DNA from: a bacterium
GTDB lineage: Bacteria; Patescibacteriota; Dojkabacteria; JAKAPS01; JAJZLI01
DNA: 64,000 bases
Direction of reading: 5' to 3'
Assembly (NCBI GenBank): GCA_021816845.1
Contig: JAKAWT010000001.1
Span: 262,087 to 326,086 of the forward strand
The position numbers and the translations under genes are program-made. Each line of letters begins with the position of its first letter. Position 1 is the first letter of the stretch. The notes under the pieces were generated by a model, which did no database searches, had not been told where the DNA came from, and was given only the letters and a program-made list of their open reading frames with translations. Below, piece after piece: positions 584 to 23,898 of this stretch.

Positions 584-2239
584 CTACTGGAAAAATTCCT
601 TTTCAAAATCAAAAGCAAATATTTTGCTATTTATATGGATATCTTTTGCTATAATTAACGCTTCACCTACGTCAAATTTTAATAAAGAGTCTTTTTCATC
701 ACTTGATAGTGAGAAAGAACGCGATAATCCAGCAAGATTTATTTTCTCCTGTTTTAATAGAACTTTCAGTGATGTATTTGCAATAATTGATCTTCCCTGT
801 TCTGTTGATATAAAATCCTCTACATCTTGAGTAATATAGAAAATTCCAAAATTATATTTCCTTGCCCTTTTTGAAATTGTTTTTAAATAATTAATAAGAT
901 CAACATTTTCAAACAATCTATGAGCTTCATCAATGAAAATTTCTCTTTGGGTTTTACCATCATGCATATTCCATATGAAATTTAAAACAAGATACATCAT
1001 CAATGATATATTTTCATTATCTAAACTTGAAATATCAAAAACTATTAAATCGTCATCCTTGGATATCTTTATATTAGTCTTTTGAGAATATAAGGATGCA
1101 TTTGTACCTTTTGCTATATTAAATATCTCATCTGCCATACGCGCCTTTGATTTTAAAAGTATATTATACAAATCAACAAATGTGGGAGTTTTGCAGTCTT
1201 TGTATATCCTAATTAAAGCCCTGTCAATTTCATTCTTATCATAATAACTACAGGCCCTTTTTAGAAAACCTTTTAAAAATTGTATCTTTTCTTCAACATT
1301 TTCATTCTTTGTTAAATCAAATGGATTTATATGAAACATTGAGTCATGGCTCAATTTTAAAACTTTGGATCTAGATCCAGAGGATCCAGATCCAGTATTG
1401 TTAAGATTTTTAGCAAGTTTTACATATTCTCCTTCTGGATCTATTACAATTGTTTTTATACCTTTTGATATCATCCTTAAGATGACAGTTTTTGCAAAAA
1501 AACTTTTACCAGCTCCAGACTTTGCAAACACGACTGCATTATAGTTTTCAAACTTAAATATATCAAAGGATATAATAGATTTAGTATTCACATTTATTCC
1601 ATATATTATTCCTGTAAAATCAATAAGGTTATTAGAAGTAAATGGAGTTGATGCTGCTACTGTCTTAAGATTAATAATAGTAGGTAAAGATATATTAGAA
1701 TATGCAGAGTGTAGTAGAGACTTAAAACCTTCAGCATGCCTTAGGTCTAATGGGTAAAATTTGAAACTGCGTGACGCTGTAAAAAGTTCAAAATTCTTAC
1801 AAGAAGTATTTAATGCTGATAGAGAATCTTCAGATATAGCAATAACTATACCAAAAACCATACCCTCTTCTTCCTGGTTTATAATAGATAAATTAAAATC
1901 TTCCAGATTTGAAATCTCAACATCTAGTGACATATCCCTTATTTTACCGGCAGATAATCTTCTGTGCCTTTTTGCTGATAATGATGCAATCCTCATTTTT
2001 ATACCTTGGAGTAAGGCCTTTTTATCAATAGGCTGTATAAACTGCCTTATTACTATATTCGAGTTCAAATTTAGAAAATCAGAAAAATAAAATGGGGTAA
2101 TATCTTGTGGAAAATCATACAGATAATACATTCTATAGAACCTACCGTCCATTTTTAGATATTTATGATTTTCATTTACTATCTTTGGCAATAAAATATC
2201 ACCAGACCCTTTAAAACTTATTTTTATTCTTTTATTCAT
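584..2239 (-). CDS. VirB4/TrbE/CagE-family T4SS ATPase, paralog A (551 aa, ATPase-bearing part)
   Basis: Walker A FAKSGAGKSF is followed by an IDPEGEY motif, and Walker B is IFIDEAH. It aligns along its length with the intact paralog at 7019..9196. An in-frame GS-rich insertion (NTGSGSSGSRSK) is encoded by the palindromic 15-bp repeat. Confidence 0.75.
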   Translation of the reverse strand: MNKRIKISFKGSGDILLPKIVNENHKYLKMDGRFYRMYYLYDFPQDITPFYFSDFLNLNSNIVIRQFIQPIDKKALLQGIKMRIASLSAKRHRRLSAGKIRDMSLDVEISNLEDFNLSIINQEEEGMVFGIVIAISEDSLSALNTSCKNFELFTASRSFKFYPLDLRHAEGFKSLLHSAYSNISLPTIINLKTVAASTPFTSNNLIDFTGIIYGINVNTKSIISFDIFKFENYNAVVFAKSGAGKSFFAKTVILRMISKGIKTIVIDPEGEYVKLAKNLNNTGSGSSGSRSKVLKLSHDSMFHINPFDLTKNENVEEKIQFLKGFLKRACSYYDKNEIDRALIRIYKDCKTPTFVDLYNILLKSKARMADEIFNIAKGTNASLYSQKTNIKISKDDDLIVFDISSLDNENISLMMYLVLNFIWNMHDGKTQREIFIDEAHRLFENVDLINYLKTISKRARKYNFGIFYITQDVEDFISTEQGRSIIANTSLKVLLKQEKINLAGLSRSFSLSSDEKDSLLKFDVGEALIIAKDIHINSKIFAFDFEKEFFQ

Positions 2240-2246
2240 AAATAAT

Positions 2247-2849
2247 CTATATAAAACTTAAAATATTAATAATCTCATCTCTTGTATCTACAATTTTTGC
2301 ACGTAGTGGAGTTTTGGAAAGTAAGAATAAAATTTGTTTATCATGGACCTTTAGAGAGTTATCTATGTTGTTTAATTCCTTCTTAAAAGATAAAGATTTC
2401 CTGGGATGTTTTATCTTATAAGTTATAAAAAACCTTTGGGAGTAAATCTTATTTTGCTTATAGAACATTTTAAAACTATCTTTGTATAATTTTTGTAAAT
2501 CTACTTTATTATTTTTGGATTCACTGGATCTGAATTCCCTGAATCTTAATCCTCGGGACCCAGATCCTCTGGATCTAGATCCTTTGGAATTTGGTCCTTT
2601 AATATTTTTTATATATTTTAAAATTTCACTTTCCTCTATCTCTCTAGATACTACAGTTATGTCTATCGGAATATGCACACCTTTTAAAAATTCTTTGTAC
2701 TTTTTTATAAAATCAATCTTTACATCTTCCTCAGATAGAACAAAATGTGAAGGGAAAACCTCTATGATTCTCATATAAAAATAATCTTTCAGGATTATTG
2801 TCCCTCCTAAAACATCAATTATTGGATAGAAATCATTTGTTTTTTTCAT
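2247..2849 (-). CDS. Conserved T4SS-associated protein immediately upstream of VirB4 (paralog of 9225..9908)
   Basis: Same position relative to VirB4 as 9225..9908, with recognisable similarity (…IIDVLGGTIILKDYFYMRIIEVFPSHFVLSEE… vs …NLLILKNGNVCIVIETSAVNFYLLSEIE…). It carries five degenerate 15-bp repeat units encoding GSRSRGSGSRG. Its stop codon lies 7 nt before the VirB4-A ATG, in a different frame. Confidence 0.4.
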   Translation of the reverse strand: MKKTNDFYPIIDVLGGTIILKDYFYMRIIEVFPSHFVLSEEDVKIDFIKKYKEFLKGVHIPIDITVVSREIEESEILKYIKNIKGPNSKGSRSRGSGSRGLRFREFRSSESKNNKVDLQKLYKDSFKMFYKQNKIYSQRFFITYKIKHPRKSLSFKKELNNIDNSLKVHDKQILFLLSKTPLRAKIVDTRDEIINILSFI

Positions 2850-3213
2850 TGAATTGAGACCTTTTTATTCCTAAGAATTTTGATTCTTGAAGCCTTACTT
2901 CTGGAAGCTCTGCTTCTTGGAGTTCTACTTCAAAGATATTGTATGAGAAAATATATTTTTTATCTTTGAATAAATATTTAATAGAATCCAAAATTAAGAT
3001 ATATGTAGGTCTCCCTCTATAATTTTGTTTTATCAAAAAATAGAAGATAGCTATAATAGAAGATCCTAAAAATATTTTTATATGTATATCAAGTGAAGAT
3101 ACTACCAAAAAAAGAATCGGGGGTGCTGAAAATAATACAACAAAAATATCTGAGGTTAGAGAGAAATAATTATTCCTTAAACTTTTGATTTTATAAACTT
3201 TTACTTTGTCCAT
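2833..3213 (-). CDS. VirB3-like small two-TM membrane protein
   Basis: 126 aa with two hydrophobic helices, sitting upstream of VirB4 as in VirB3/PrgI-type proteins. It resembles the N-terminal 110 aa of 9912..11819. Confidence 0.4.
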   Translation of the reverse strand: MDKVKVYKIKSLRNNYFSLTSDIFVVLFSAPPILFLVVSSLDIHIKIFLGSSIIAIFYFLIKQNYRGRPTYILILDSIKYLFKDKKYIFSYNIFEVELQEAELPEVRLQESKFLGIKRSQFNEKNK

Positions 3214-4133
3214 TATATTATAGATTTAATTTTGGATGATAGAGAAAATATTCTTTCATTTATGACACCACCAAGAAGTTGAGGAATCAAAGAGAGAGAA
3301 AATAGAACTATAATTCCAAGTATCAATCTTTCTAAATTTCCTATGTAATAATTATTAACTATTACTACAAATACAGAAATACCAATTAAGAATGCCGGCT
3401 GGATAAATAAAAGCTGCACTATTTTAGAGAAAGCATTAGGCAATAAATCTCCCATTGGAGGATATATAGATATAACAATAAAAAGAGGAAATAGGAGAAT
3501 TAGAATCCAAAGCATAATAAATCTTATTATAAACTGCAAAGAGAATATGAACAGCGCTATAATAAGAAGTATGTATAATACTATTGAGACAATTCCAGAA
3601 AATATTCCTATTTGAAGTGATGAAGCCCCCATCGTGTTTACAATAGTTGAGAATAAACTTGAACTTCCTCCTATCATATGTACGACTATAAATTGATCTA
3701 CAACATTTATAAATGTTATGAAAAAAGACAAGAAATATATAGATGTAAAAAGAAATATTACTGAAATAAAAAGACTACCTAATAAATCAGATGGAGATAA
3801 ATTGGTTTTACCAACCGTTGCTTCTCCAATTAAATGTATAACATAAACAAGAATTATTACTGGTATAATTGAAATTGCAAGATATTGGGTCCCATTTCTA
3901 TAGTTAGAAATAGCAGCACCTTCAAAATCACCTCCTCCTGGTTTTAGAATGTTGGGTGTATATTCTGTGAACTGATCTATTATATACCCTAGAGAACATA
4001 CTACTCCTTCAAAAGAATATGTAGTTTGAGACGAGCATCCTGACCCTGTACTTTGATTTTGAGCAAATATAGGGGATGCTAGCAGAAAAAGCAGTAATGA
4101 ACTAATAAAAAGTCCCCGAATTAACAACCCCAT
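3213..4133 (-). CDS. Secreted polytopic membrane protein, VirB6/TrbL-like (paralog of 52025..53635)
   Basis: Signal peptide ending …SPIFAQ, then a Ser/Thr/Gly-rich segment with two Cys (GSGCSS…VVCSLGY), then at least 6 TM helices. This architecture is shared with 52025..53635 (…VFAQTTTTSSS…CAPANG…CGF). Confidence 0.45.
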   Translation of the reverse strand: MGLLIRGLFISSLLLFLLASPIFAQNQSTGSGCSSQTTYSFEGVVCSLGYIIDQFTEYTPNILKPGGGDFEGAAISNYRNGTQYLAISIIPVIILVYVIHLIGEATVGKTNLSPSDLLGSLFISVIFLFTSIYFLSFFITFINVVDQFIVVHMIGGSSSLFSTIVNTMGASSLQIGIFSGIVSIVLYILLIIALFIFSLQFIIRFIMLWILILLFPLFIVISIYPPMGDLLPNAFSKIVQLLFIQPAFLIGISVFVVIVNNYYIGNLERLILGIIVLFSLSLIPQLLGGVINERIFSLSSKIKSII

Positions 4134-4353
4134 TTATAAATGTAGTTAAACTAGTAGCACTAAGTACAATAAAAAGACCTATCATTATCCAGACTATTCT
4201 CTTTACAAGTTTAGATCTCTCTTGTGGATTATCTGCATTTAAAATAAATTGAATCCCTAATATTATTATAATTATTAGTAATACTGTCTCCACTGTAGTT
4301 ACTAATAAGGAAGCTATATTTGAAACAAATTGTGACAATCCTGGTATTTGCAT
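4102..4353 (-). CDS. VirB2/TrbC pilin-like small hydrophobic protein
   Basis: 83 aa with two hydrophobic helices separated by a short polar loop. It is the first gene of the minus-strand operon, which is where VirB2 usually sits. Confidence 0.35.
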   Translation of the reverse strand: MQIPGLSQFVSNIASLLVTTVETVLLIIIIILGIQFILNADNPQERSKLVKRIVWIMIGLFIVLSATSLTTFINGVVNSGTFY

Positions 4354-4465
4354 AATGTTTTTATTGATGAGTTAAATATGTCTATTATAGATGAGTTAAA
4401 AAAAATGTCAAATATATAAATGAAAGACTCTTATTAAAAGACAATCCATATTATAAATATCTTTA

Positions 4466-4519
4466 TTGACACAATATGACACAAATGATATAGTATAAGG
4501 GTAGTAATACTACCCTTAT
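4466..4519 (+). promoter_or_regulatory. Sigma70-like promoter with a 25-bp perfect palindrome operator overlapping the abiEi start codon
   Basis: -35 TTGACA at 4466-4471, a 17-nt spacer, then -10 TATAGT at 4489-4494. The palindrome ATAAGGGTAGTAATACTACCCTTAT (4495-4519) covers the predicted transcription start and the ATG at 4518. A direct repeat TGACACAA x2 lies at 4467-4484. Confidence 0.5.
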
Positions 4520-5111
4520 GTATAATCAAATTAAAAGTGTAGAAAAACTAATATTGTCTGGTAAAAAGGTTTTCACTACTGGAGATTTAGCCGTACTTTG
4601 GGAAATTACAAACAGAAATAGGCTGAGGGATAGGATAAAATATTATCTGAAAAATAAAAGACTTCAATCTATCCACAGAGGTATTTATGTTTATGATAAT
4701 AATTATACAAGGGAGGATATAGCACAAAAATTATTTCCATTATCATATATTTCTCTCTATACAACTTCACAAATATATGGACTAACATTTCAGTACTACT
4801 CAGACATTTATTCAATTGCCTTAAAAAGCAAAAAGTATGAAATAGATGGGACAATATACATATATCATAAGGTTAAAGAATCAATTTTTTATAACACCAT
4901 TGGACTAACAAATAATGGCAGGTATACTATTGCTAGTAAAGAAAGAACAATTTGTGATATGTTATATGTTTTCCCAAAGATATCTTTTGACAATTTAAGA
5001 GAAATAAATATCAAAAAATTAGAGGAAGTTTCTAAAATTTATGATAATAGAAGATTGGAAAAATCAATCAACAATATTATTTTAGACATTAATAAACATG
5101 ATAGATCTTGA
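4518..5111 (+). CDS. AbiEi-family antitoxin / transcriptional autoregulator (type IV toxin-antitoxin)
   Basis: About 197 aa with an N-terminal wHTH-like segment (…KVFTTGDLAVLWEITNRNRLRDRI…RGIYV…). It lies immediately upstream of and overlaps an AbiEii-like nucleotidyltransferase gene, and has a palindromic operator at its own promoter. Confidence 0.55.
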   Translation: MYNQIKSVEKLILSGKKVFTTGDLAVLWEITNRNRLRDRIKYYLKNKRLQSIHRGIYVYDNNYTREDIAQKLFPLSYISLYTTSQIYGLTFQYYSDIYSIALKSKKYEIDGTIYIYHKVKESIFYNTIGLTNNGRYTIASKERTICDMLYVFPKISFDNLREINIKKLEEVSKIYDNRRLEKSINNIILDINKHDRS

Positions 5112-5772
5112 AAAGCATGCACAAATACTAAAAAATATACTAAAAGATATTTACACTGATAAATATTTACAAACATCCTTAGCCTTTAAAGGAGGGTCTT
5201 GCCTATATATGTTTTATGGATTAGACAGATTTTCAGTTGATTTAGATTTCAACTTAAAAACTGAAAATTTTGATCCAGATAAGATTACAAAAATACTAAA
5301 GAACTATATCAACATAAATGATCAATCAAATAAAAGGTTTACATGGTTCTGGTTAGGGAGTTATGAAGAAAACAAACAAAAAATAAAACTAGAGATTTCT
5401 AAAAGGGATTATCCAGATAAATATATAAACAAAGATTTTTACGGTATTACCATTTCAATAATGGAACCATCCTACATGTTTGCACATAAACTCTGTGCCA
5501 TCACAGATAGAAAGGTACTGCAAAATAGAGATCTATATGATGCTCATTTTATGTTTAAAAAAGGGTTTGAAATTAATGAGGAGATTATAATGATTAGAAC
5601 TGGAAAAACTAAAAAAGAATATTTTGCATACTTGGTAAAATATATAAATGACAATGTTAATTCTCAAAACATCATTGAGGGATTAGGAGAATTATTAAAT
5701 AGTAGCCAAAAAGACAGTGTAAGAGCAACACTGCGTAGAGATATATTGTTTGATCTAGAGAGTAGAATGTAA
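5098..5772 (+). CDS. AbiEii/AbiGii-family nucleotidyltransferase toxin (DUF1814-like)
   Basis: Hallmark motifs LAFKGGSCLY (GGT/S) and RFSVDLDF (R-x-S-x-D-L-D-F). It overlaps the upstream gene by 14 nt. Confidence 0.65.
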   Translation: MIDLEKHAQILKNILKDIYTDKYLQTSLAFKGGSCLYMFYGLDRFSVDLDFNLKTENFDPDKITKILKNYININDQSNKRFTWFWLGSYEENKQKIKLEISKRDYPDKYINKDFYGITISIMEPSYMFAHKLCAITDRKVLQNRDLYDAHFMFKKGFEINEEIIMIRTGKTKKEYFAYLVKYINDNVNSQNIIEGLGELLNSSQKDSVRATLRRDILFDLESRM

Positions 5773-5855
5773 TAAGAGGAAACTTAATTAAAATACATCA
5801 ATAAAAGGAAAATTTGTAATCTTTTAAAAATTAGAGTAAAATTTTCTCTAAGTAT

Positions 5856-7004
5856 ATGAAAAATAAAATAGTAACATTATCTATATTGTTAGCATTGCTG
5901 TTTGTAGTAGCTGGACTTTTTTCAGTATCCTTATTATTCTCTAAAAAATCTCATGCATCAAGTCTTAAATTGTATCAAAATGTAAACGTATATAAAAAAT
6001 CATCTGGGAATTTATACGTTCTTGGCAACTCACTTTCTGTCAACAATAAAATTTTAGGAGATATGGTATTTTTTGGTAGCAATTCCATAATAAATAATAT
6101 TATATCTCAGGATTTCATTGATTTTTCTGGAACTACTATAGTGAATGGTACTATAGTAAATAATGCATATGTTGTTTCAGGAAATGTCACTCTAAATGGA
6201 AAGGTTAAAGAAGATTTAGTTTTTCTTGGAGGAAACATAGATATATCAAGAAATGCTACTGTGTACGGTAACTTATACGCCCTAGGAGGAGAAGTACTTG
6301 TTAATGGTACTATCATGCATAATGCATATGTTGATGCTGGACATTTTACTTTAAATGGCAATATTGGAGGTAACTTAAAACTATCATCTAATAATGTTGA
6401 AATTAATAAAGGATCTAATATCCATGGATATCTTTCATATACAGGATCAGATAATAAAAAATCCTATGTTGATAAAAATAGTATAAAAGGACATATATAT
6501 AGATATTATACAAACCAAGATCAGAAAGAAATTGCCCTCACCATAGCAAGGACAGTACTTACATTCCTTGCTATGATAATATTTGTGTTACTATTTATAA
6601 GAATATTTCCAAGATTATCTTTATCAGTAGTAAAGAATGCCACAGAAAAAACATGGGTAAGTTTTGGGTATGGATTTGTAGAAATCATAGTAACACCTGT
6701 AATTGCAGCAATATTACTACTAACAATAATAGGGATTCCAGTATCAATATTATTAATAGGGATATATATGTTATTAATTTTTGTATCCTATATGTTAAAC
6801 GGGCTTATATTGGGAGCATTCATTACAAAATATTTATATAGAATGGATGTGGGAATAAGGTTTAGGTCAGCATTTGCTGGAATATTCATATCATCACTTA
6901 TAAGCATAATCCCAGTAATAGGAGGTCTATATAACATATTTATGGGAATTGTGATATTTGGGGCATTTAGCTTAATAATGAAAAATTATATATTAAAAGT
7001 CTAA
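5856..7004 (+). CDS. Membrane protein with an N-terminal anchor, a beta-helical repeat domain (bactofilin/DUF4097-like) and a C-terminal multi-TM region
   Basis: Repeated G-N/T-V/I-x-V/L-N-G units (NGTIVNNAYVVSGNVTLNGKV…GGNIDIS…GGEVLVNGTI…), followed by about 4 TM helices. Confidence 0.4.
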   Translation: MKNKIVTLSILLALLFVVAGLFSVSLLFSKKSHASSLKLYQNVNVYKKSSGNLYVLGNSLSVNNKILGDMVFFGSNSIINNIISQDFIDFSGTTIVNGTIVNNAYVVSGNVTLNGKVKEDLVFLGGNIDISRNATVYGNLYALGGEVLVNGTIMHNAYVDAGHFTLNGNIGGNLKLSSNNVEINKGSNIHGYLSYTGSDNKKSYVDKNSIKGHIYRYYTNQDQKEIALTIARTVLTFLAMIIFVLLFIRIFPRLSLSVVKNATEKTWVSFGYGFVEIIVTPVIAAILLLTIIGIPVSILLIGIYMLLIFVSYMLNGLILGAFITKYLYRMDVGIRFRSAFAGIFISSLISIIPVIGGLYNIFMGIVIFGAFSLIMKNYILKV

Positions 7005-7018
7005 GACTTAATTTCGCA

Positions 7019-9196
7019 CTAGCTAACAATACTGTTATATTGTATCTGTGTATCCTCACCTCCTCCACTTGATTCAGGAGTTTCTTTATCAGTATCAGCA
7101 TCATCCCCTTCACCATCAATGCCATCTGGAGGAACACTTTCTGGTACCGGACTTTCTTGAGATATTCCATCCTGCCTTAAGGGTTCAGACTGGGGTTCTT
7201 CAGTTTCATCTAGCGTATTTTTACCATCTACATCTGCAATTGTATTTGGAACTATCCTATCTAACGATGCACCTTCTGCTCTCATTTTTAATATTTCTTC
7301 TGGATTTGTAGTTATTAGTTTATATTCATATTCGGAAGAATAGATTTGGATTGCTACATGATTTGCACCAACAAAGAATATTCCTTCACCAATTTCCGCA
7401 GATAAAAGTAAATTTTTCTCCCCTGCAGATAAATAAAAGACGTCAGAAAGATGGTCTATAGCAGTAGGAGACTGTCTTAATAAAATCTGAATTGAAGAGT
7501 TAGTAACCACAGCCTTTCCATACTCATTGGATAGAAAATCATCTACATCCTGAGATACCGTAGTAAGACCAAGGTAATATTTCCTTGCTCTTTTTGAAAC
7601 TGCATAAACAAATTGTGCAGAATCAGGGTATTGCATTAATATCCAAGCCTCATCTATTATGAATAGTCTTCTCTTCAGTTCTTTTTTAACCCTTGTCCAT
7701 ATAAAATCCAACATTAAAAACATGGCTATTGGCCTAAGTTCATCTGATAAATCTCTTATTGAAAACACCATAAATTGGTTATTAATATCTACATTTGTAT
7801 GTTGATCAAAAATTCCAGAAGCAGAACCTTTAACAAATTTCTCTAATCTTTGAGCTAGACTATGAGCTTCATCCTCTTCCATTGAAAGGAGGATTTTATA
7901 CAAATCTTCCATTAGAGGTGGATCTTTTACCTGTGTTGAAGGATCAAAAGTTATACCTTTATCTCTGTATGTTAAGATCAAAGCCTTATCTAGTATAGCA
8001 TTCTCCATATTGGTAAGACCTCCTTCCTCACCTCCAAGCATAACTTTAAAAAGCCCATGGAGAGAAAGAATTTTAAACCTTAGTTCATCTTCTCCTTCCT
8101 CATAAACTCCAGATAAATCAAATGGATTTATCTTTGAATCTCCATCTTGGGAAAAAGAAATATATGACCCGTTCATTGCCTTACACAATGTCTCATATTC
8201 CCTTTCTGGATCTATTATTATAATCTGAGTACCTAACATGAGAGATCTTAATGCTTCAAGCTTTACAAGAAAACTCTTCCCTGCTCCAGATTTTGCAAAA
8301 ATTACAGAATTTGCATTCTCAAGATCAAATCTATCAAAAACTACGAGACTTTTATTTGCCTTATTTATTCCATACAAAACTCCTCTGTCTGAAGTTAGTT
8401 CTGATGATACAAAAGGGAATGTTGTAGCTATGGACGTAGTATCCATATTGTGTGTATAGTACATTTTGTCATTACCTTCAGGAAGAGTCGACTTAAATCC
8501 CTCCTCCATTTGGAGGGTTGCTGGTTTAATGATAAGAGACATAGCTCCTAGCGTCGCTTCAAGATTTTTAGATATATCATTAAGTTCTTCAAGTGTATCC
8601 GCTCTTATTGATACATATAAGGCAAAATGGAAATACCTTTCTGATCCTTTCGCAAGATCATCCTGTAATTGTTTTGCATCCTCCAAAGCAACCTTTAAAT
8701 TAGGATCCAAAACTTTCCCTGAATCTATCATGGTATTTGTTGTAGCCTCCATTTCAGCGATTTTTCTTCTAAGTTGTACTAAAACAGTATTTGAGCTTAT
8801 AGGATAATAGAACATACTTATGTCTATGGAATGTTCAAATGTAATTAGAGGAGATAACCAATTGGGAACAACATACCTTGGATATGCAATAGCAAAATAT
8901 GTTTTATAATATTTCTCCCCGATCTTTATATGGGCAAAATCCACTTCAATCGAGGCGGGAGCAATAATATCTTTAATAGAATTTATACCTGTCCCAAACT
9001 CTATTAGAGGATCTTTTGCTGTCTGATCATCAAGACTTTCCATAACTTGTGACTGACCTCCTTGTAGTTGACCTCCTTGTGGTATGGCATTCTGAGCATA
9101 GAAAGTATTAGCATCGTTCTGCTGAGTAGCAGTCCCCTGTTGAGGAGTGACTGTTTGATTATTCTTCTTTTGTTGTTTTTTAAACGGTAAGTTCAT
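7019..9196 (-). CDS. VirB4/TrbE/CagE-family T4SS ATPase, paralog B (intact, 725 aa)
   Basis: Walker A IFAKSGAGKSF, IIDPEREYE, Walker B IIDEAW. It has a Gln-rich N-terminus and an acidic C-terminal tail (…GEGDDADTDKETPESSGGGED…). Confidence 0.8.
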   Translation of the reverse strand: MNLPFKKQQKKNNQTVTPQQGTATQQNDANTFYAQNAIPQGGQLQGGQSQVMESLDDQTAKDPLIEFGTGINSIKDIIAPASIEVDFAHIKIGEKYYKTYFAIAYPRYVVPNWLSPLITFEHSIDISMFYYPISSNTVLVQLRRKIAEMEATTNTMIDSGKVLDPNLKVALEDAKQLQDDLAKGSERYFHFALYVSIRADTLEELNDISKNLEATLGAMSLIIKPATLQMEEGFKSTLPEGNDKMYYTHNMDTTSIATTFPFVSSELTSDRGVLYGINKANKSLVVFDRFDLENANSVIFAKSGAGKSFLVKLEALRSLMLGTQIIIIDPEREYETLCKAMNGSYISFSQDGDSKINPFDLSGVYEEGEDELRFKILSLHGLFKVMLGGEEGGLTNMENAILDKALILTYRDKGITFDPSTQVKDPPLMEDLYKILLSMEEDEAHSLAQRLEKFVKGSASGIFDQHTNVDINNQFMVFSIRDLSDELRPIAMFLMLDFIWTRVKKELKRRLFIIDEAWILMQYPDSAQFVYAVSKRARKYYLGLTTVSQDVDDFLSNEYGKAVVTNSSIQILLRQSPTAIDHLSDVFYLSAGEKNLLLSAEIGEGIFFVGANHVAIQIYSSEYEYKLITTNPEEILKMRAEGASLDRIVPNTIADVDGKNTLDETEEPQSEPLRQDGISQESPVPESVPPDGIDGEGDDADTDKETPESSGGGEDTQIQYNSIVS

Positions 9197-9224
9197 ATTT
9201 TTAAAATTAGTCTTTTTTAATTCA

Positions 9225-9908
9225 TTATTTTGATCCAGAAACTATTGGACCTGTATATTCATCAAAGTCACCTCTAATTTTAGCATTCATAGGATTATAT
9301 ATGCTATAGAAAAGTTTTATTAAATCTGCACTCTCAAGTTGCCTAGATCTTAATCCCATTCTAGAGAGTTGCTTGATTATGTGATCCCTCCTTGGATAAA
9401 GCCTGATTTTTGCAGCCTCAACCAACTTAGTAGTATCTCCAAGTTTAGCTTGTTTACCAAAGAACTGTTTAATAAAAGAAGGTTTCTTAGGCATTGATGC
9501 AAGATATGGAATGACAATATAGAAATGTTTATCTAGAACATTATTTTTCACAATTAAATCCTTAATATTTTTTCTATAAATATCTATTTGGTATTTAATT
9601 TTAGGATCTCTCTGCTTTAATTTATACTCATCAAGATGCTTTAAATATCTTGATATATCAATATTTTCAGTATGTATCATAACTTGGATATAAAAACCGA
9701 GAGAATTTAGTAATCCTGCAAATGCATATATTTTAGATTCCTGCTCAATCTCAGATAAAAGATAGAAATTTACAGCAGAAGTCTCAATGACTATACATAC
9801 ATTTCCATTCTTTAGAATAAGAAGATTATCTTTAATATCTTCTATATCAAGATGATCTTGAGTTGTTGCTACTATAGGTACCCTTTTAGGATCAGATAAA
9901 ATTGACAT
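9225..9908 (-). CDS. Conserved T4SS-associated protein upstream of VirB4 (paralog of 2247..2849)
   Basis: Same synteny and sequence similarity as 2247..2849. The C-termini are also related (…LRSRQLESADLIKLFYSI vs …LRAKIVDTRDEIINILSFI). Confidence 0.4.
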   Translation of the reverse strand: MSILSDPKRVPIVATTQDHLDIEDIKDNLLILKNGNVCIVIETSAVNFYLLSEIEQESKIYAFAGLLNSLGFYIQVMIHTENIDISRYLKHLDEYKLKQRDPKIKYQIDIYRKNIKDLIVKNNVLDKHFYIVIPYLASMPKKPSFIKQFFGKQAKLGDTTKLVEAAKIRLYPRRDHIIKQLSRMGLRSRQLESADLIKLFYSIYNPMNAKIRGDFDEYTGPIVSGSK

Positions 9909-9911
9909 AAT

Positions 9912-11819
9912 TTATATTCCACTAATATTTGTTTTTTCCTCCTTTGATACAGGTATGAACATAAAAGGAGGGATTATTTGGCCACTAATTTCTATTGTTG
10001 CAGTATTAAACTTGTATCCTGCTGCATCAACCTCTATTTCATATCTACCTAAAGGTAAAGGTGTTCTTGTGAAAAACTGCCCTAATTGATTAGTTTTTAC
10101 AGCCCTAACAGGTTTTTGGTTTGTATCTTTTACTATAACTATAGCGTTGTTCAGTATTTTATCCTCATCTGTAATAACAACTCCTGCAACAACATTAGCA
10201 ACCTTTGTAAACTCTGGAAGATGATCAATTAATTGCTGTCTAGTAAGGCCTATAGATTGATCTTGATTGGTCTGATCTAAATTACCTGGTGTATTATCAG
10301 ATTTTTTTTCTTCATGTATCAAAGATTGATCCTGTGGTTGACCTTGGGCCTGAGGTCCTTGGGCCTGAGGACCTTGGATCTGAGGTCCTTGGACTGACTC
10401 TTGATCTGATGTCTGCATATTTCCAAAATCCTGTGATTTAGGTGCAGACAAAGTTGGTTCTGTAAATTTTTGCCCATCTTGTTCTGCAGATACAGACTTC
10501 TCTGTAAGCTGAGTTTTCAATCTCTGGTTTTCTTCCTCTAATGCCTGTATCCTTGTTAATATTTTAGCAAGCTCGGCTTCTCTTGACTCACCCTCAGAAT
10601 GAGTTGTTGCAGCAACTGTGGGATCAAGATCCTTGGGATCAAGATCCGTTGGATTAAGATCCTTGGGATTAAGATCCTTGAGATCGGGTTCCTCGGGATC
10701 AAGTTCCGCGGATTTGACTTGAGTATTATTTGATGTATTTGAAGATAGGTCTGTGGAAACAGCTTTAGTATCAATACTTGAAGATACATCTTGTTGCACT
10801 ACATCCGCCTCTTCTTTATTAATGGTAGTTGGCTCTGTAGAAGATGTTACTGTTTGCTCTTGTGGAATCGTTTGAGTAGGTGATGTATTTTCAGTATTAA
10901 TCTGATCGACAATATCTTGAAAAGGATTATCTATCTGCCCAACATTAGAGGTTTCAGGTTTAGCTTGGGTATTTATAAAATCATCTCTAATATTGGGATT
11001 TACAGATGATCTAACTTCTTCTGCTGCAGAGACTGGAGTTATGTTATTTATATTGAAAGGATTGTACTGAGGGATTTTATCTCCATCTTTAGTATCTTCA
11101 CTACCAGTTGAAGTATTGGGTATAGCACCTGGTATGTCAGGACCATTAGATATAGAACCTATCCCTTGAAGATTATCTTTCTGAAGATTACCATCCTGTA
11201 TGGGCATTCCTGATAGAATATTTGGACTTGCAACAAAAGGGTCACTCGCTACATGCATTGTAGACCCCTGATTAAACAAATCAGTTCCTAGATTTGAAGG
11301 TGGCGTAGACCCACTAGTAGATCCATTAGATATCATACTATTTATCTTATCAATATTTGCAATTAAAGTCTTCTCCTTTACATCAAGGGCGTTATCTACT
11401 GCATCTTCATTAACTGAATTTAGTGAATTATCAAAAGGAGATTGGTATAGAAACATAGAAACATCTTTTTTATTGTTATTTTTATTAACCATAGGCCTAT
11501 CAATCTTCAAAATATTGGGTATAACTTCATTTTTCTTCCAAACCCTTTGGGTAGGATTTTTTATTGCAACTATAAAATTTGTAATCCACTCATCTAGAGG
11601 TCTATCATCAATAGGAACAAAAGCTATTGCCAAAGCTAAAAGAACAAATATTGCAGTAAATGGAACAGTTATGTAGTTACTTATTTTTACAACATACATT
11701 ATAAATCCAATCAACAAAGGTGTTGCAATTATAAGGAATTGCCTCATAGACATATTCCCTATAAGTTTAAACTGAATACTCATTATATTTTGAGGAATTG
11801 AATGCTGTTTCTCGTTCAT
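9912..11819 (-). CDS. VirB3-like N-terminal membrane module fused to a long disordered region, a coiled coil and a C-terminal transthyretin/CarboxypepD_reg-like beta-sandwich
   Basis: The N-terminal two TM helices resemble 2833..3213. The low-complexity region includes a (KDLNP)x6 array and GPQAQ repeats. A coiled coil (…AELAKILTRIQALEEENQRLKTQLTEK…) is followed by the C-terminal …VVAGVVITDEDKILNNAIVIVKD…GRYEIEVDAAGYK…. Confidence 0.45.
   Translation of the reverse strand: MNEKQHSIPQNIMSIQFKLIGNMSMRQFLIIATPLLIGFIMYVVKISNYITVPFTAIFVLLALAIAFVPIDDRPLDEWITNFIVAIKNPTQRVWKKNEVIPNILKIDRPMVNKNNNKKDVSMFLYQSPFDNSLNSVNEDAVDNALDVKEKTLIANIDKINSMISNGSTSGSTPPSNLGTDLFNQGSTMHVASDPFVASPNILSGMPIQDGNLQKDNLQGIGSISNGPDIPGAIPNTSTGSEDTKDGDKIPQYNPFNINNITPVSAAEEVRSSVNPNIRDDFINTQAKPETSNVGQIDNPFQDIVDQINTENTSPTQTIPQEQTVTSSTEPTTINKEEADVVQQDVSSSIDTKAVSTDLSSNTSNNTQVKSAELDPEEPDLKDLNPKDLNPTDLDPKDLDPTVAATTHSEGESREAELAKILTRIQALEEENQRLKTQLTEKSVSAEQDGQKFTEPTLSAPKSQDFGNMQTSDQESVQGPQIQGPQAQGPQAQGQPQDQSLIHEEKKSDNTPGNLDQTNQDQSIGLTRQQLIDHLPEFTKVANVVAGVVITDEDKILNNAIVIVKDTNQKPVRAVKTNQLGQFFTRTPLPLGRYEIEVDAAGYKFNTATIEISGQIIPPFMFIPVSKEEKTNISGI
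10621..10710. repeat. 15-bp tandem repeat x6 (GGATCAAGATCCTTG family) encoding KDLNP/KDLDP pentapeptides inside 9912..11819
   Basis: Direct reading gives ggatcaagatccttg / ggatcaagatccgtt / ggattaagatccttg / ggattaagatccttg / agatcgggttcctcg / ggatcaagttccgcg. This is the same unit family as the GGATCTAGATCC repeats at 1367, 2525 and 40458. Confidence 0.8.
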
Positions 11820-15566: not shown

Positions 15567-17234
15567 ATGAATCTTAAAAATATATTAGTATCTAAAAATT
15601 ATATATCAGAAAGTCTTTATACAGAACTAGAAGAGAAGGCAAAACAATTGAATACTTCTGTAGAAGATTTGTTGATAGCGCAGAATACTATAACTGAAGA
15701 TAAATTAGGAGAGATAGTTGAGAGTGAACTTAATATCCCTTATATCTCTCTAGCTCATAAAACTATAGATCCAGCTGTAGTAAAAATAATACCTGAAAAA
15801 ACAGCAATAGAAAAAAAGATAGTTGCATTTGATAAGACAACATCAACTTTAAAAATAGGAATGACTAACCCTAGAGATATTAATACTATTGAGTTTATAA
15901 AAAAAGGTACTGGATATAACATAGATCCATATTTTATAACAGAAAAATCTTTCTATGAAGGACTAAAATTTTATAAAACATCCATAAGAGAAGAATTGAA
16001 AGATATAATCGAAAAGAATGCAAAAGAATCTAAAAATGTTAAGTCAGGTGAGACAGAAGCATTGCCTATTATAAATATTACAGACACAATACTTGAATAT
16101 GCAAAAACTATGGGAGCATCAGATATTCACATAGAACCGATGGAAACTGAAGCAATAGTAAGATATAGAATAGATGGGATATTGCATGATCAAGCCACTT
16201 ATCCACTACCAGTACACCAAGCAGTGCTCGCAAGAATAAAAATTCTAGCAAACTTAAAAATCGATGAACACAGACTTCCACAAGATGGAAGATTTAAATC
16301 AACAATTAGTGATAGAGATATATCTTTTAGAGTCTCCATAATGCCAGTTTACTCTGGTGAAGTCTTAGTCATGAGATTACTTGAGGATAACGCAAAGGAA
16401 TATAGTCTGGAGAGTTTAGGTATGGCAGGGAGAGATTTATCTGTTATACAAGATGCAATAAAAAGAACTGTAGGTATGATCCTTGTAACAGGACCAACTG
16501 GATCTGGAAAAAGTACAACTCTATATACTGTGCTATCGGAATTGAATACACCAGAAGTAAATTTAGACACTATTGAAGATCCTATTGAATATTCTATGCC
16601 AAGAGTCAATCAAACCCAAGTAAATGCAAACATAGGACTTACTTTTGCGTCGGGGTTACGTTCATTTTTAAGACAAGACCCTGATGTTATCATGGTAGGG
16701 GAAATCAGAGATACTGAAACAGCAGATATTGCTATAAATGCTGCTATGACAGGACATTTGGTATTATCAACTCTTCATACCAATGACTCATCTGGAGCTA
16801 TTCCAAGGCTTATAGATATGCATATTGAATCATTTTTAGTATCATCTACTTTGAATGTTATAATAGCTCAAAGGCTTGTTAGAAAACTCTGTAACAATTG
16901 TAAGCTAGAGTATTCTCTAGATAAAAAATTAATAGAAATATTAGAAGAACAATATACAAAAAAAGGAGTCGACAAGAAAATAACAAAAGATAAATTCTTT
17001 AAACCACAGGGTTGTGAGTATTGTACTAATGGTTATAAGGGAAGAATAGGTATATATGAAGTTTTAGAGATTACAGATGATATAAAAACTTTAATAGCAA
17101 GAAGGGAAAATGCCAACGTAATACAGAAAGCTGCACAAGAGAGTGGTATGAGTTTGATGATAGAGGATGGCATGAGGAAAGCTGAAGAAGGAATAACTTC
17201 GCTTGAGGAAGTATTAAGGGTTGTTAAAGAATAA
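15567..17234 (+). CDS. pilB: Type IV pilus assembly ATPase PilB (GspE family)
   Basis: T2SSE N-terminal domain, Walker A GPTGSGKSTTLY, a tetracysteine-like CNNC…CEYC motif, and conserved Asp/His boxes. Confidence 0.9.
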   Translation: MNLKNILVSKNYISESLYTELEEKAKQLNTSVEDLLIAQNTITEDKLGEIVESELNIPYISLAHKTIDPAVVKIIPEKTAIEKKIVAFDKTTSTLKIGMTNPRDINTIEFIKKGTGYNIDPYFITEKSFYEGLKFYKTSIREELKDIIEKNAKESKNVKSGETEALPIINITDTILEYAKTMGASDIHIEPMETEAIVRYRIDGILHDQATYPLPVHQAVLARIKILANLKIDEHRLPQDGRFKSTISDRDISFRVSIMPVYSGEVLVMRLLEDNAKEYSLESLGMAGRDLSVIQDAIKRTVGMILVTGPTGSGKSTTLYTVLSELNTPEVNLDTIEDPIEYSMPRVNQTQVNANIGLTFASGLRSFLRQDPDVIMVGEIRDTETADIAINAAMTGHLVLSTLHTNDSSGAIPRLIDMHIESFLVSSTLNVIIAQRLVRKLCNNCKLEYSLDKKLIEILEEQYTKKGVDKKITKDKFFKPQGCEYCTNGYKGRIGIYEVLEITDDIKTLIARRENANVIQKAAQESGMSLMIEDGMRKAEEGITSLEEVLRVVKE

Positions 17235-17262
17235 AATCCAATAATTTAAATATTCAAACATT

Positions 17263-18123
17263 ATGAGAAATTATATTGATAATGATTATTGTGTAGTTTT
17301 AAAAAAAGAAGATAGTGTATTTATAAAGACAGATATTTTACTCTTAATAGCACCTCATCCAGACGATGAAAGTCTTTCATCTGCAGGTATGATACAAAGA
17401 GCAATAGCAGCTGAGACTAAGGTTATCGTAATATTCATAACTAATGGTGATGGATTCAAAATAGCAACAAAAAGAAGTCATTTAAGACAAAAATTAACAC
17501 CAAATATATATAAAAAGTTTGCACTTCTAAGACAGAATGAAGCCATAGTTGCACTGTTGGAACTTGGTGTTAAACAAGATAATATAATATTTCTTGGGTT
17601 TCCAGATGGTGGATTGAAATCTCTATACACAACAAATTTTAAAAATCCTTTTAGGTCAAGAACGACAAAAGAAACTAAAGTTCCGTATGAAAATTCTTAT
17701 AGATATGAAGATCAATATACTGGAGAGAATCTACTGGATACCTTATCTACTATAATAGGTACTTATAAACCTACATATATAATATATCCAGATCCTAAAG
17801 ATACCCATGATGACCACAATGCTACTTCTCTGTTTATAAAAAAAGCTATAGAAAAAGAAAAATTAAATATAAATATAAAAGAACTAACTTATCTTATACA
17901 TTTTAAAGATTGGCCACAGTATACTATACAAAATCATAAAAAGTATGCCCGAATACCAAAATTATTAAGGGGAAAAGAAAAATTTCTTAATCTCGAACTT
18001 ACAGATGAAGAAGTTTCTAGGAAGAAAAAATCTTTATTATCACATAAGACTCAAGTAAAGCTTGTAAAACCTTTCTTCTTAGCCTTCACAAAAAGGAATG
18101 AGATTTTTATACTGAAGAAATAA
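17263..18123 (+). CDS. PIG-L/LmbE-family N-acetylglucosaminyl deacetylase
   Basis: LLIAPHPDDESL motif near the N-terminus and a downstream HxDH motif (THDDHN). Confidence 0.7.
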   Translation: MRNYIDNDYCVVLKKEDSVFIKTDILLLIAPHPDDESLSSAGMIQRAIAAETKVIVIFITNGDGFKIATKRSHLRQKLTPNIYKKFALLRQNEAIVALLELGVKQDNIIFLGFPDGGLKSLYTTNFKNPFRSRTTKETKVPYENSYRYEDQYTGENLLDTLSTIIGTYKPTYIIYPDPKDTHDDHNATSLFIKKAIEKEKLNINIKELTYLIHFKDWPQYTIQNHKKYARIPKLLRGKEKFLNLELTDEEVSRKKKSLLSHKTQVKLVKPFFLAFTKRNEIFILKK

Positions 18124-18133
18124 AACTGCTAGA

Positions 18134-19621
18134 TTATAGTGCAAGGAGAAATAATATGTATGGAATATACAATACTCCATCTTTAAGCATTGGATTAAAA
18201 TCTTTTGTTAATATTATTTTTTTCAAAAATCCAAATTTTTTTGACAGATTTAAAAAGTTTTTTGTGTATTTAACATTAATACCTACTGCATAGTCTGAAT
18301 ATGATAATATAAAGTCTATTTCTTTTTCTCTATCTCTAAAATATTCTATTGATGTAGCAACTGATTTTTGTAGGAGGGAAATTAGAACTATATTTTCAAG
18401 ATATTTATTAAAAAGATCAATATTTGATAATATTTCTTCTAATTTTATTTTTAATATACTATTTCGTATTCCCATATCAATCAAGAATACCTTTATATTA
18501 GACACCTTGTTGATATTAGATCCATACTTTGAAAGAGTTAATATTAGATTAGATTCTCTAAGGAGAGATATATATCTTTCTAATGTTTCTCTATGAAGGC
18601 CAGTTTCTCGTACAAGCTCATTTAAAGAATATTCTTCGGAAGGGTGGGATGCAAAAAGAAAAAATAAATTAGCTAAAGAAGAAGTATTTTTTATATCTTC
18701 TAGAATATAGATATCTTCGAGTAATACTTTCTCAATTTGAGTTTGGTATAAATATTCATATTGGAGTGTAGTATCCTGGATCTCCCATCCTTCTATGAAT
18801 CCTCCTACTATTAAGTATTGCTCAAAGAGGAGATACAGTTCATCAGAGAATAAACTCAAACCTAAAGAGAATTTTTCGAATGTATCGAAAATTTTAGATA
18901 CAGGCAGATTAAATAATGTTTCTCCAAATTTTCCTATTAAACTAAGGTTTTTAGAAATTTCTTCTTTGGCCTGAATATCCAATTTATCATCAAAGGATAT
19001 TTTAAAGGATACAAATTCTGAGAAAGAAAAAGGATATATTTTGAAATTCTTTATTCTTCCGGCTAAAGATTCTTTACTTTTTGACACTATAGATGAAGAG
19101 ACTGATCCTGATACTATAAATTTTATATTATAATTTTTGAATCTAGATCCATTATCGTAATATTTTTTTAGGAATAGCTCCCAATCAGAAAATTTATGAA
19201 TTTCATCTATTAGAAAATAAACTTTTTCTGTGTTGAAATCTTTTAGATTCTCACCTTCCACATTTCTTAAAAGATAATACTTTTCATAAACTGAAAGTAT
19301 TTTATCAAAAAATACAGGGTTTCCTCTTTTTGAAAATATATAAGGATCATCCATTGAAAGGTAAACTATATTCTGAGGAAGTACATTCTCAATAATAATA
19401 AGATCCGATATAATCTGCTTTATAATAGTAGTCTTACCCACTCTTCTTGGTCCGGTTATTGATACAATTTGTCTTAGTTCTGTAACACTTACAAATATAT
19501 CATTATATACGAACCTCCTAAATAGTGGAGTATTTAGCGATGAATTTTTATTCTTCCACCAAGGATTATAAAATTCGAGAGTTTTCCTTATTATTTGATC
19601 TTCTAAATCTACACTAGACAT
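18134..19621 (-). CDS. AAA+ ATPase with a DUF4143-like C-terminal domain
   Basis: Walker A ITGPRRVGKTTII, Walker B FLIDEIH, and length and architecture typical of the ATPase-DUF4143 family. Confidence 0.65.
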   Translation of the reverse strand: MSSVDLEDQIIRKTLEFYNPWWKNKNSSLNTPLFRRFVYNDIFVSVTELRQIVSITGPRRVGKTTIIKQIISDLIIIENVLPQNIVYLSMDDPYIFSKRGNPVFFDKILSVYEKYYLLRNVEGENLKDFNTEKVYFLIDEIHKFSDWELFLKKYYDNGSRFKNYNIKFIVSGSVSSSIVSKSKESLAGRIKNFKIYPFSFSEFVSFKISFDDKLDIQAKEEISKNLSLIGKFGETLFNLPVSKIFDTFEKFSLGLSLFSDELYLLFEQYLIVGGFIEGWEIQDTTLQYEYLYQTQIEKVLLEDIYILEDIKNTSSLANLFFLFASHPSEEYSLNELVRETGLHRETLERYISLLRESNLILTLSKYGSNINKVSNIKVFLIDMGIRNSILKIKLEEILSNIDLFNKYLENIVLISLLQKSVATSIEYFRDREKEIDFILSYSDYAVGINVKYTKNFLNLSKKFGFLKKIILTKDFNPMLKDGVLYIPYILFLLAL

Positions 19622-19726
19622 ATAATATATTTAACAGAGAAACATAAAATATTGCAAGGTTTTAAATAAATACATTTAATTATACAACAAGATATAAAAA
19701 TGTATACATATTTTTATGCCTAACCA

Positions 19727-21013: not shown

Positions 21014-21575
21014 ACATGTTTTTATCTGCTATATTAATCATGTCTTCCAAATTATGAGCATCTTTCGTTGAAATTGCAATACCAAATGAAGCTTCACATC
21101 CACCTAATTCTACAAAATCCCTTATCCTTTGACGCATTTTTGTAATTTCGCTGTCTTCTTTTGGCACCCCATATAAAATTATAATAAACTCATCACCTCC
21201 AGATCTTATCACTCTATCATAAGGACGAGATGCACCTTTTAGTAACTCAGTAAATTTTTTAATATATAAATCACCTTCCTCATGCCCCATACTGTCGTTA
21301 ATATCCTTCAAATGATCCAAATCTGCTACAACTACAGCAAACAACTCTCCTCTATCAAATCTTGAATTCAGTTCTCTTTTAAGTTCAGTACTTTGTAAAA
21401 ACTTTTTATTGTATGCCCCTGTAAGCCCATCTGTAAATGATTCATCATGTAGCATTTGATTTTCTTCTTTGAGTAAAGAAATCTCTTTTTTTAAATCTTC
21501 AATTATACGCCTAAGTTCTAATGGGTCACCTTCCTCTTGAATCTTGGGCTCCTGGACTATAACTTTATCTTCCAT
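20985..21575 (-). CDS. Stand-alone GGDEF diguanylate cyclase with an N-terminal coiled coil
   Basis: GGDEF signature RSGGDEF, upstream DGLTGAYNKKFL, and an N-terminal leucine-zipper-like segment. It overlaps the start of the downstream NDH-2 ORF by about 29 nt. Confidence 0.8.
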   Translation of the reverse strand: MEDKVIVQEPKIQEEGDPLELRRIIEDLKKEISLLKEENQMLHDESFTDGLTGAYNKKFLQSTELKRELNSRFDRGELFAVVVADLDHLKDINDSMGHEEGDLYIKKFTELLKGASRPYDRVIRSGGDEFIIILYGVPKEDSEITKMRQRIRDFVELGGCEASFGIAISTKDAHNLEDMINIADKNMYDDKNSRRN

Positions 21576-21656
21576 AACATAATTATATCAAAACAATAAA
21601 TATATACCTACTTTCTCACTATTGCCTTTATATCAAATTCTTTATATATTTAATAT

Positions 21657-22892: not shown

Positions 22893-22936
22893 TTCTAAGA
22901 ATCTAGACCCACTGGTTAAATTTAAATTATGAACCA

Positions 22937-23897: not shown

Positions 23898-23898
23898 T

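Follow-up and report, generated by a model that had tools for sequence, protein, structure and literature searches.

A compact second type IV secretion module beside the canonical system in a Dojkabacteria chromosome

Known systems and the locus under study

Patescibacteria carry a monoderm-type type IV secretion system (T4SS) that lacks a relaxase and likely serves an epibiotic lifestyle (PMC12102498, PMC10633639, PMC12857230). This canonical system derives from the MPF-FATA class and is known from the vicinity of dnaA with TrsD, VirB3, VirB6 and VirB2-like pilins (Quinonero-Coronel et al. 2025, PMC12102498). In Saccharibacteria it is essential, as reported for the Southlakia epibionticum locus SEML1_0006-0019 (Wang et al. 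2023, PMC10633639). The Patescibacteria T4SS is the first shown to be essential for its bearer, and it is a suspected builder of a VirB2 pilus in a monoderm. A survey that counted 2,425 in-clade VirB4 proteins in 2,407 assemblies, with a few out-of-clade ones, does not discuss second modules of the kind described here (PMC12102498). Here we analyse Module A, a five-gene minus-strand operon in a 64-kb stretch of Dojkabacteria contig JAKAWT010000001.1 (positions 262,087 to 326,086, hereafter the window, with positions counted from its first letter), which also holds a canonical T4SS core. A compact, divergent second five-gene module beside the canonical one appears to be undescribed in PMC12102498, PMC10633639 and PMC12857230. 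The elements of Module A, in the direction of transcription, are as follows.

4384..4411, minus strand: promoter-like site TTGACA-16 nt-TATAAT, 30 nucleotides (nt) 5' of the pilin ATG, 12/12 consensus match
4102..4353, minus strand: VirB2/TrbC-like T4SS pilin, 83 amino acids (aa), two transmembrane helices, without a cleavable leader (Pfam, NCBIfam, hydropathy)
3213..4133, minus strand: minimal VirB6/TrbL-like polytopic membrane protein, 306 aa, likely (profile-level homology, hydropathy)
2833..3213, minus strand: small membrane protein, probably VirB3/PrgI-like, 126 aa (weak profile matches, hydropathy, position)
2247..2849, minus strand: TrsD-like protein, 200 aa, soluble (profile searches)
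584..2239, minus strand: VirB4-family ATPase, short form, 551 aa, soluble (NCBIfam, PDB profile, motifs)

Module A shares with the canonical Patescibacteria T4SS its MPF-FATA repertoire (a VirB4 preceded by TrsD and a VirB3/PrgI-like protein, a VirB6 and a VirB2-like pilin), the lack of a relaxase and a chromosomal location in the dnaA region, and it is in that system that each Module A protein has its nearest relatives by sequence. It differs in occurring as an extra set alongside the canonical one of the same genomes. Its VirB4 is placed outside the canonical clade, which has 99% support, its VirB6 is shorter (306 aa, with canonical family members of roughly 400-1380 aa), and its VirB3 is free-standing at 126 aa whereas the canonical counterpart is fused to a large extracellular region; the operon encodes one leaderless pilin in place of a canonical array of 4-7, and neither a hydrolase nor a large surface protein.

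Two further systems invite comparison. Within MPF-FATA, pGO1 is the only subclass with a separate TrsD before VirB4 (PMC12102498), and the pGO1/pSK41 module of staphylococcal plasmids (TrsB-TrsC-TrsD-TrsE-TrsF-TrsG) resembles Module A in its small two-transmembrane protein ('CagC family' by NCBI annotation), VirB3-like TrsC, TrsD and VirB4. It differs in being conjugative and in encoding a MOBQ relaxase, a CHAP hydrolase and a topoisomerase, in the position of its VirB6-like gene and in its VirB4, which is ~24% identical; searches with the Module A pilin profile against pGO1 TrsB and with the VirB6 profile against TrsF gave no signal. The second system is the rvh T4SS of Rickettsiales, where a reduced-genome, host-dependent bacterium likewise keeps chromosomal paralogues of core scaffold genes (PMC2653234). 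It is a diderm MPF-T system with duplicated VirB4, VirB6, VirB8 and VirB9, dispersed over scattered islands, whereas Module A duplicates a whole five-gene set as one operon and the Walker motifs of this second VirB4 are intact.

Gene identities, intactness and conservation

The five open reading frames (ORFs) lie within window positions 584-4353, each where the first-pass annotation had placed it, co-directional and tightly packed, and the Walker, IDPEGEY and DEAH motifs that it quoted are present. That annotation had read the locus as VirB2-, VirB6-, VirB3-like and VirB4 genes of MPF-FATA (monoderm) affinity in a reduced-genome organism; profile matches bear out the four assignments, VirB3 being the weakest, as well as the affinity, and the organism is indeed a reduced-genome Patescibacterium. 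From pilin to ATPase, neighbouring genes overlap by 32, 1 and 17 nt and the last two are 7 nt apart, an arrangement that fits a translationally coupled operon. The promoter-like site is the sole 12/12 match to TTGACA-16-TATAAT in the window when both strands are scanned and is kept at the same position in the close relatives L089 and L090; it would serve as promoter of all five genes. No intrinsic terminator was found 3' of the Module A VirB4 gene.

A direct repeat, TTTAACTCATC, occurs in two copies within window positions 4354-4411 on the minus strand and also in L089 and L090, with copy 1 overlapping the -10 hexamer and copy 2 lying between that hexamer and the start codon. The more distant loci L006, L086 and L088 have instead a common palindrome, AAATTTGCCATGSATGGCAA, 5' of the pilin gene. 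Both elements look like possible operator sites.

The ATPase shows Walker A (FAKSGAGKSF), IDPEGEY and Walker B (IDEAH) motifs, and across 13 orthologue clusters AKSGAGKS, IDEAH, RKYN and ITQD do not vary. It matches NCBIfam conju_CD1110 at 1.2e-69 over profile positions 187-731 of 752, with a score of 235 bits that falls under the 325-bit equivalog cutoff passed by the neighbouring canonical VirB4 (400 bits); we therefore regard it as a divergent member of the VirB4 family and not as a CD1110 equivalog. Other VirB4 families follow (VirB4_plasma, the VirB4 of the Mycoplasma integrative and conjugative element, 1.3e-57; TraC, 1.6e-30; VirB4_CagE, 9.8e-22), beside which the NCBIfam matches to HerA (1e-4) and SXT_TraD (4e-4) are marginal. 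The sole PDB match of the clade profile is Thermoanaerobacter VirB4 (4AG5/4AG6, 1e-41). The first-pass annotation had made its reading depend on whether the protein is a VirB4 or an FtsK/HerA/TraG-type ATPase, and the NCBIfam and PDB matches decide for VirB4. Residues 14-546 align with the neighbouring canonical 725-aa VirB4 at 31% identity. We also considered a truncated ATPase and rejected it, as the alignment with the canonical VirB4 core runs end to end and the canonical protein merely adds low-complexity tails.

The 200-aa protein had been listed as a conserved partner; the gene is conserved, as claimed, but its product has a recognisable identity and is TrsD-like by profile searches. A profile of six orthologues matches the ORF directly 5' of virB4 in 80+ canonical Patescibacteria loci (best 3.7e-13), the canonical 227-aa protein of the window (1.2e-8), a Pontibacillus 281-aa protein encoded 5' of a short VirB4 (4e-8) and, within the unsplit CD1110 VirB4 of B. 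mycoides, residues 48-155 (1.5e-5), and a combined Patescibacteria TrsD-like profile matches the pGO1-type staphylococcal TrsD (2e-7). These searches were run on small local databases with bit scores of 15-48, and E-values of local profile searches throughout refer to such small databases. The window protein itself has no direct NCBIfam TrsD match, its canonical 227-aa paralogue matches that family at 1.1e-5, far under the curated cutoff, the L087 and L088 orthologues carry weak precomputed PF26593 TraC-like matches, and a homologue search yielded 3 clusters only. By these profile alignments the protein is the equivalent of the split-off N-terminal segment of a CD1110-type VirB4. Since the TrsD matches extend to the VirB4 N terminus, TrsD and the short VirB4 together amount to one full-length monoderm VirB4, in agreement with the description of TrsD as a remote homologue of the VirB4 N terminus (PMC12102498).

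The pilin scores above Pfam cutoffs for T4SS_pilin (5.7e-10, 39.6 bits versus 26.6) and TrbC (1.8e-7, 31.7 versus 27.9) and reaches 38 bits (9.6e-10) against the NCBIfam Mbov_0395-family pilin, whose cutoff is 40. Hydropathy gives two transmembrane helices, the two-helix hairpin expected for T4SS pilins, and no other VirB2-like pilin is detectable in the window. T4SS pilins are normally made with long cleaved leaders. Pilins of the narrow group around Module A (80-83 aa) begin at a conserved IPGL motif without a leader, the window pilin starting MQIPGL, and distant relatives (103-105 aa; L098 2740-3057, L099 188-499, L100 9711-10025, L101 261-575) bear a typical signal peptide before that motif.

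The 306-aa protein has a signal-like N-terminal helix, a ~55-aa outside segment with two invariant Cys residues and ~5-6 transmembrane helices by hydropathy. Its match to Pfam TrbL (E = 0.35; best in its family 0.0024) stays below cutoff throughout the family, and the link to VirB6 is for this reason transitive. Alignment of the Module A VirB6 family with an 82-member canonical Patescibacteria extended VirB6-like family, built from ORFs adjoining virB4 in other Patescibacteria, by hhalign gave 97.1% probability (E = 7.5e-11, 244 columns). In an exhaustive search of 1.84 billion representatives the family profile reached P0179 at 2.3e-8, a protein that itself exceeds the Pfam TrbL cutoff (29.7 versus 25.9), as well as P0162 and P0163, both with TrbL_3 matches (that of P0163 marked weak). 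The significance appears in family-to-family comparison only: the Module A family against the single canonical window protein C536 (the 536-aa product of the gene at 52025) gave a non-significant 4.6% probability, and C536 against P0167 was not significant either. The seven top Foldseek PDB hits of a low-confidence model of the 306-aa protein are all TrwI/VirB6 of R388, at E-values of at least 0.045, after which scores collapse. Taken together, these comparisons indicate that the 306-aa protein is likely homologous to VirB6/TrbL, with the curated family cutoff not reached.

For the 126-aa protein the matches are to NCBIfam VirB4_plasma positions 8-96, the VirB3-like N terminus of the Mycoplasma fusion protein (1.5e-5), and to Pfam TcpE (0.01), and its family profile matches B. 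mycoides PrgI and a Pontibacillus 119-aa protein (0.002 each). The protein is hydrophobic at residues 17-62, and its gene stands between the VirB6 and TrsD genes in 12 of 12 lineages. A 15-nt repeat at 2884-2931 extends the C-terminal tail of the protein, and a direct comparison with the canonical PrgI fusion found no similarity. With a size, hydrophobic segment and gene position that fit as well, the protein is probably VirB3-like.

All five genes are under purifying selection. The ratios of nonsynonymous to synonymous substitution (dN/dS; NG86, among the window and two relatives whose ATPases share about 85-88% identity) are 0.06-0.11 for the pilin, 0.05-0.06 for VirB6, 0.23-0.29 for VirB3, 0.10-0.13 for TrsD and 0.06-0.10 for VirB4, overall 0.05-0.29, and are similar to those of neighbouring canonical genes. 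A pseudogenised Module A was considered and rejected, as both these ratios and the invariant motifs speak against it.

The narrow group of ATPase relatives, drawn from 5.8 billion proteins, comprises 13 clusters at 48% identity or more, after which identity drops to ~32% and to canonical Patescibacteria VirB4s; the Module A VirB4, called A-type here together with those of its relatives, is about 30-33% identical to canonical ones. The 306-aa protein yielded 11 clusters, and the exhaustive VirB6 search added seven (354-388 aa), four of which could be placed (L098-L101) and show the same order of pilin, VirB6, VirB3, TrsD-like and short VirB4 genes. The five-gene order is thus identical in 12 lineages, 8 close and 4 more distant, and a canonical module lies directly upstream in seven of them (window, L004, L006, L086, L087, L089/L090 and L100). 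At least one A-type locus (L006) is found in GTDB species representatives among the matches listed, and JGI metagenome contigs gave no match to a protein-pattern scan or to a 29-nt degenerate DNA pattern validated on 10 fetched loci.

In two neighbour-joining VirB4 trees with bootstrap and with Firmicutes and archaeal outgroups, the A-type proteins are united in one clade (98-100% for the narrow group by itself, 90% once distant members are included), and the canonical Patescibacteria VirB4s without them form another (86-99%), in which the canonical VirB4 of the window groups with Daviesbacteria (97-99%). By similarity the nearest relatives of A-type VirB4, TrsD and VirB6 are Patescibacteria proteins, the best Patescibacteria match of the A-type VirB4 scoring 286 bits versus 170 bits for the best plasmid VirB4. 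Between the same genome pairs canonical VirB4 and TrsD are 74-85% identical and Module A proteins 30-59%, so that Module A evolves much faster over long spans while still constrained. The Module A VirB4 is, as judged from identities and trees, a rare, divergent lineage with its own compact partner set. The simplest reading of its history is that the module was duplicated long ago inside Patescibacteria and then accelerated, though it may instead have been acquired separately from another monoderm.

No VirD4/TcpA, relaxase or T4SS-type VirB11 was detected by Pfam and NCBIfam in window ORFs of at least 90 aa, the sole T2SSE-family ATPase being PilB of a type IV pilus cluster. In neither the window nor the 10-kb flanks of 12 related loci was a relaxase, type IV coupling protein (T4CP), integrase or replication function found linked to the T4SS genes, apart from a weak rve match ~6.5 kb downstream in L100, and the flanks of the related loci hold housekeeping genes. 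Among plasmids and viral contigs no close relative was found, viral contigs giving 25-30% partial matches. On this gene content Module A lacks what defines a conjugative element and is not an ordinary one, as the first-pass annotation had argued. Its use of VirD4 absence in that argument carries less weight: the gene is absent from the window, but T4CP homologues occur in most Patescibacteria genomes and usually far from virB4 (PMC12102498), so that this absence is uninformative about the genome.

What Module A may do

We consider it most probable, at roughly 60%, that Module A is a functional, chromosomally fixed and self-contained compact T4SS module, an old, fast-evolving paralogue or co-resident of the canonical system that acts as its specialised partner. 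A strong promoter would drive the five translationally coupled genes; VirB3 and TrsD would tether and complete a VirB4 hexamer at the cytoplasmic membrane, and this hexameric motor would dock on the VirB6 platform. Pilin pulled out of the membrane by VirB4 would then be assembled into a short pilus or conduit, which would serve contact with a host bacterium and not conjugation. Because Module A lacks extracellular, adhesin and wall-hydrolase parts yet has the sole pilin of the window, its role beside the canonical system would most likely be that of a specialised unit, for a pilus or a second channel, and not that of a redundant copy. The long retention of two motors in genomes of ~0.5-0.8 Mb likewise argues for different jobs, which would bear on how epibionts handle their hosts. 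The proposal of the first-pass annotation that this locus is a prime candidate for the host-interaction machine stands in part: such a system is published for Patescibacteria, but Module A is not the ortholog of the essential Saccharibacteria system, and the canonical genes lie next door.

Several points weigh against this specialised-partner reading. Its mechanism and the pilus or host-contact function are taken over from solved T4SSs purely by analogy. AlphaFold2 gave a low-confidence model of the 306-aa protein (mean pLDDT 56.6, 12-sequence alignment) and an unusable one of the 200-aa protein (mean pLDDT 49, 4-sequence alignment), and the VirB3 assignment is the weakest of the five, its weak matches counting here too. 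The 64 kb analysed belong to a genome that spans at least 484 kb, and other pilins, a T4CP or a relaxase may lie elsewhere. In L088 and L098 no canonical module stands beside Module A, so linkage is not obligatory, and monophyly of A-type and canonical VirB4s receives 54% bootstrap in one neighbour-joining tree and 11% in the other.

A stronger claim, that A-type modules form a distinct, unclassified compact T4SS type in which a ~3.8-kb five-gene operon alone suffices for a pilus-bearing monoderm T4SS, we regard as doubtful. If true, it would make this type the smallest self-contained T4SS known and a dedicated pilus or host-contact unit that divides labour with the adhesin-bearing canonical system. 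As a minimal set (pilin, 306-aa VirB6 core, VirB3, TrsD and short VirB4), Module A could be a tractable case for studies of pilus sufficiency and of the structure of the TrsD-VirB4 split, and direct comparison is possible as the same cells carry the canonical system. We rate its value as moderate, given that this kind of system has been described before and that what Module A does is deduced.

The rival that survives best, though we hold it unlikely, is a composite machine in which Module A and the canonical genes (7019-11819 and 52025-63631) form one T4SS with a duplicated scaffold, as in Rickettsiales rvh, the paired VirB4 and VirB6 paralogues co-assembling or acting in sequence in one apparatus. 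The canonical module stays directly upstream across deep divergence (window, L004, L006, L086, L087, L089, L090, L100), the pilin is found in Module A only and the extracellular parts and NlpC/P60 protein outside it only, both sets are kept in genomes of roughly 0.5-0.8 Mb, and duplicated T4SS components in Rickettsia (PMC2653234) provide a precedent. Module A has, however, its own complete inner-membrane set and its own putative promoter; genes on the opposite strand part it from the canonical module in the window, L088 and L098 have it without an adjacent canonical module, and the provision of each VirB4 with cognate TrsD and VirB3 suggests separate motors.

Less probable still, and in our judgement improbable, is a ComB-like or Ced-like DNA-uptake importer, or a conduit for nutrient or nucleic-acid import. 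The window has no relaxase or T4CP, the VirB4 weakly matches the NCBIfam archaeal Ced ATPase CedD (1.4e-13), the bearer is metabolically dependent, and T4SS uptake of host molecules in Patescibacteria has been speculated upon (PMC12857230). The CedD match is nevertheless far weaker than the VirB4 matches and confined to the P-loop region, and the window holds a type IV pilus system; in Saccharibacteria competence is known to depend on such a system. Deletion of comEC in S. epibionticum left viability unaffected, so the essentiality of the T4SS there is not due to transformation (PMC12857230, citing Wang 2023). The window has no ComB8/9/10-type parts and no match for VirB8-, VirB9- or VirB10-like proteins, and the ComB-like DNA-uptake idea of the first-pass annotation gained no specific support.

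Least probable of all is a relic of a monoderm integrated conjugative element that lost its relaxase, coupling protein and integrase and is decaying or kept for a residual function: the grouping of the A-type VirB4 with the canonical Patescibacteria clade is insecure (11-54% bootstrap), the gene order of pGO1-type plasmids is similar (small CagC-family protein, TrsC, TrsD, TrsE; NCBI annotation), AbiE toxin-antitoxin genes and other variable cargo lie at the junction with the canonical module, and a few Patescibacteria VirB4s group with non-Patescibacteria MPF-FATA (PMC12102498), against which stand the dN/dS of 0.05-0.29 in 5 of 5 genes with invariant catalytic motifs, a position conserved (canonical module upstream; sortase and usually DnaJ downstream) at only ~50% VirB4 identity, closest relatives that are Patescibacteria proteins (286 versus 170 bits for the best plasmid VirB4), and the lack of a close plasmid or viral relative and of an integrase, relaxase or T4CP nearby.

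Canonical genes and window context

The landmarks of the window outside Module A that bear on the comparison are the following.

7019..11819, minus strand: canonical Patescibacteria T4SS core, upstream of Module A in the direction of transcription
46465-47610, minus strand: dnaN
47960-49381, minus strand: dnaA
52025..53635, plus strand: canonical extended VirB6-like protein, 536 aa, matching the 82-member family at 1.1e-40, ~40 kb from the canonical VirB4

The canonical core encodes a PrgI/VirB3-like N terminus fused to a large extracellular part (635 aa; PrgI, 1.1e-6), a TrsD-like protein (227 aa; TrsD, 1.1e-5) and VirB4 (725 aa; VirB4 CD1110, 2.7e-119, above cutoff), and its orthologues are present in 82 of the fetched loci. 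The 536-aa VirB6-like gene heads a plus-strand block of seven co-directional, mostly unannotated genes (52025-63631) that also encodes a 1571-aa protein, a 787-aa protein with an NlpC/P60 domain and four smaller ones. Homologues adjoining virB4 in other Patescibacteria are detectable for the first gene only, and the block may be the rest of the canonical T4SS, supplying channel, surface protein and wall hydrolase.

The interval that separates the canonical module from Module A is a hot spot whose cargo varies between lineages. In L090, as in the window, it holds, on the plus strand (4518-7004 in the window), an AbiEi/AbiEii toxin-antitoxin pair and a DUF8173/bactofilin-like membrane protein; L086 has another AbiEii protein (5931-7935), L004 a DUF5663 protein and a 996-aa protein (4646-7944), L087 a Kelch protein and small enzymes (3283-7609), and L006 no cargo. 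Directly 3' of Module A lies a sortase gene, at 1-515 on the plus strand and cut by the window start (259 aa in L001, 7795-8574), whose top NCBIfam match, to class C, scores under the cutoff. A sortase is found 0-3 genes 3' of Module A in 7 lineages, the distant L098 included, and a crude pattern scan found no LPXTG-type sorting signals near it. The flank beyond the left end of the window continues with the sortase, DnaJ and a large protein.

The window is chromosomal and also contains a type IV pilus cluster, pentose-phosphate genes, DnaK/GrpE/HrcA, RnpA, KsgA and YidC; an Rfam scan of it found no RNA family. The GC fraction falls to 0.22 at 46-48 kb and the GC skew changes sign at about 42-50 kb, and ~42000-50000 is likely the replication origin region. 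Module A lies ~44 kb from dnaA, and both T4SS modules are within ~45 kb of the putative origin region. A T4SS near dnaA is reported for Microgenomatia and Paceibacteria, and the dnaA/rnpA/ksgA neighbourhood is described for Microgenomatia (PMC12102498). That neighbourhood fits a probably Microgenomatia-like bearer, which the grouping of the canonical VirB4 with Daviesbacteria suggests. The type IV pilus cluster (15567-28625) encodes PilB with an MshEN domain, PilC, several N-methyl pilins and a PilM-PilN fusion, with genes for a GGDEF diguanylate cyclase and an NDH-2-like oxidoreductase interrupting it; two further N-methyl pilin genes lie at 49602-50882, beside the dnaA region.

In-frame tandem repeats with a 15-nt period occur at seven sites (1367-1395, 2519-2583, 2884-2931, 10342-10392, 10619-10707, 37997-38051 and 40452-40503), falling in three Module A genes, the canonical PrgI fusion, DnaK and GrpE. 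Several share the palindromic core GGATCNNGATCC, as in GGATCTAGATCC, and the GGATC-core pattern has 11 matches where 0.01 is expected. The repeat inserts are absent or shorter in close relatives. Depending on its orientation, the same DNA unit is read either as Gly/Ser/Arg-rich linkers or as KDLDP pentapeptides, and these two peptide readings point to spreading or expansion at the DNA level and not to peptide selection. The in-frame palindromic elements of Rickettsia resemble these 15-nt repeats.

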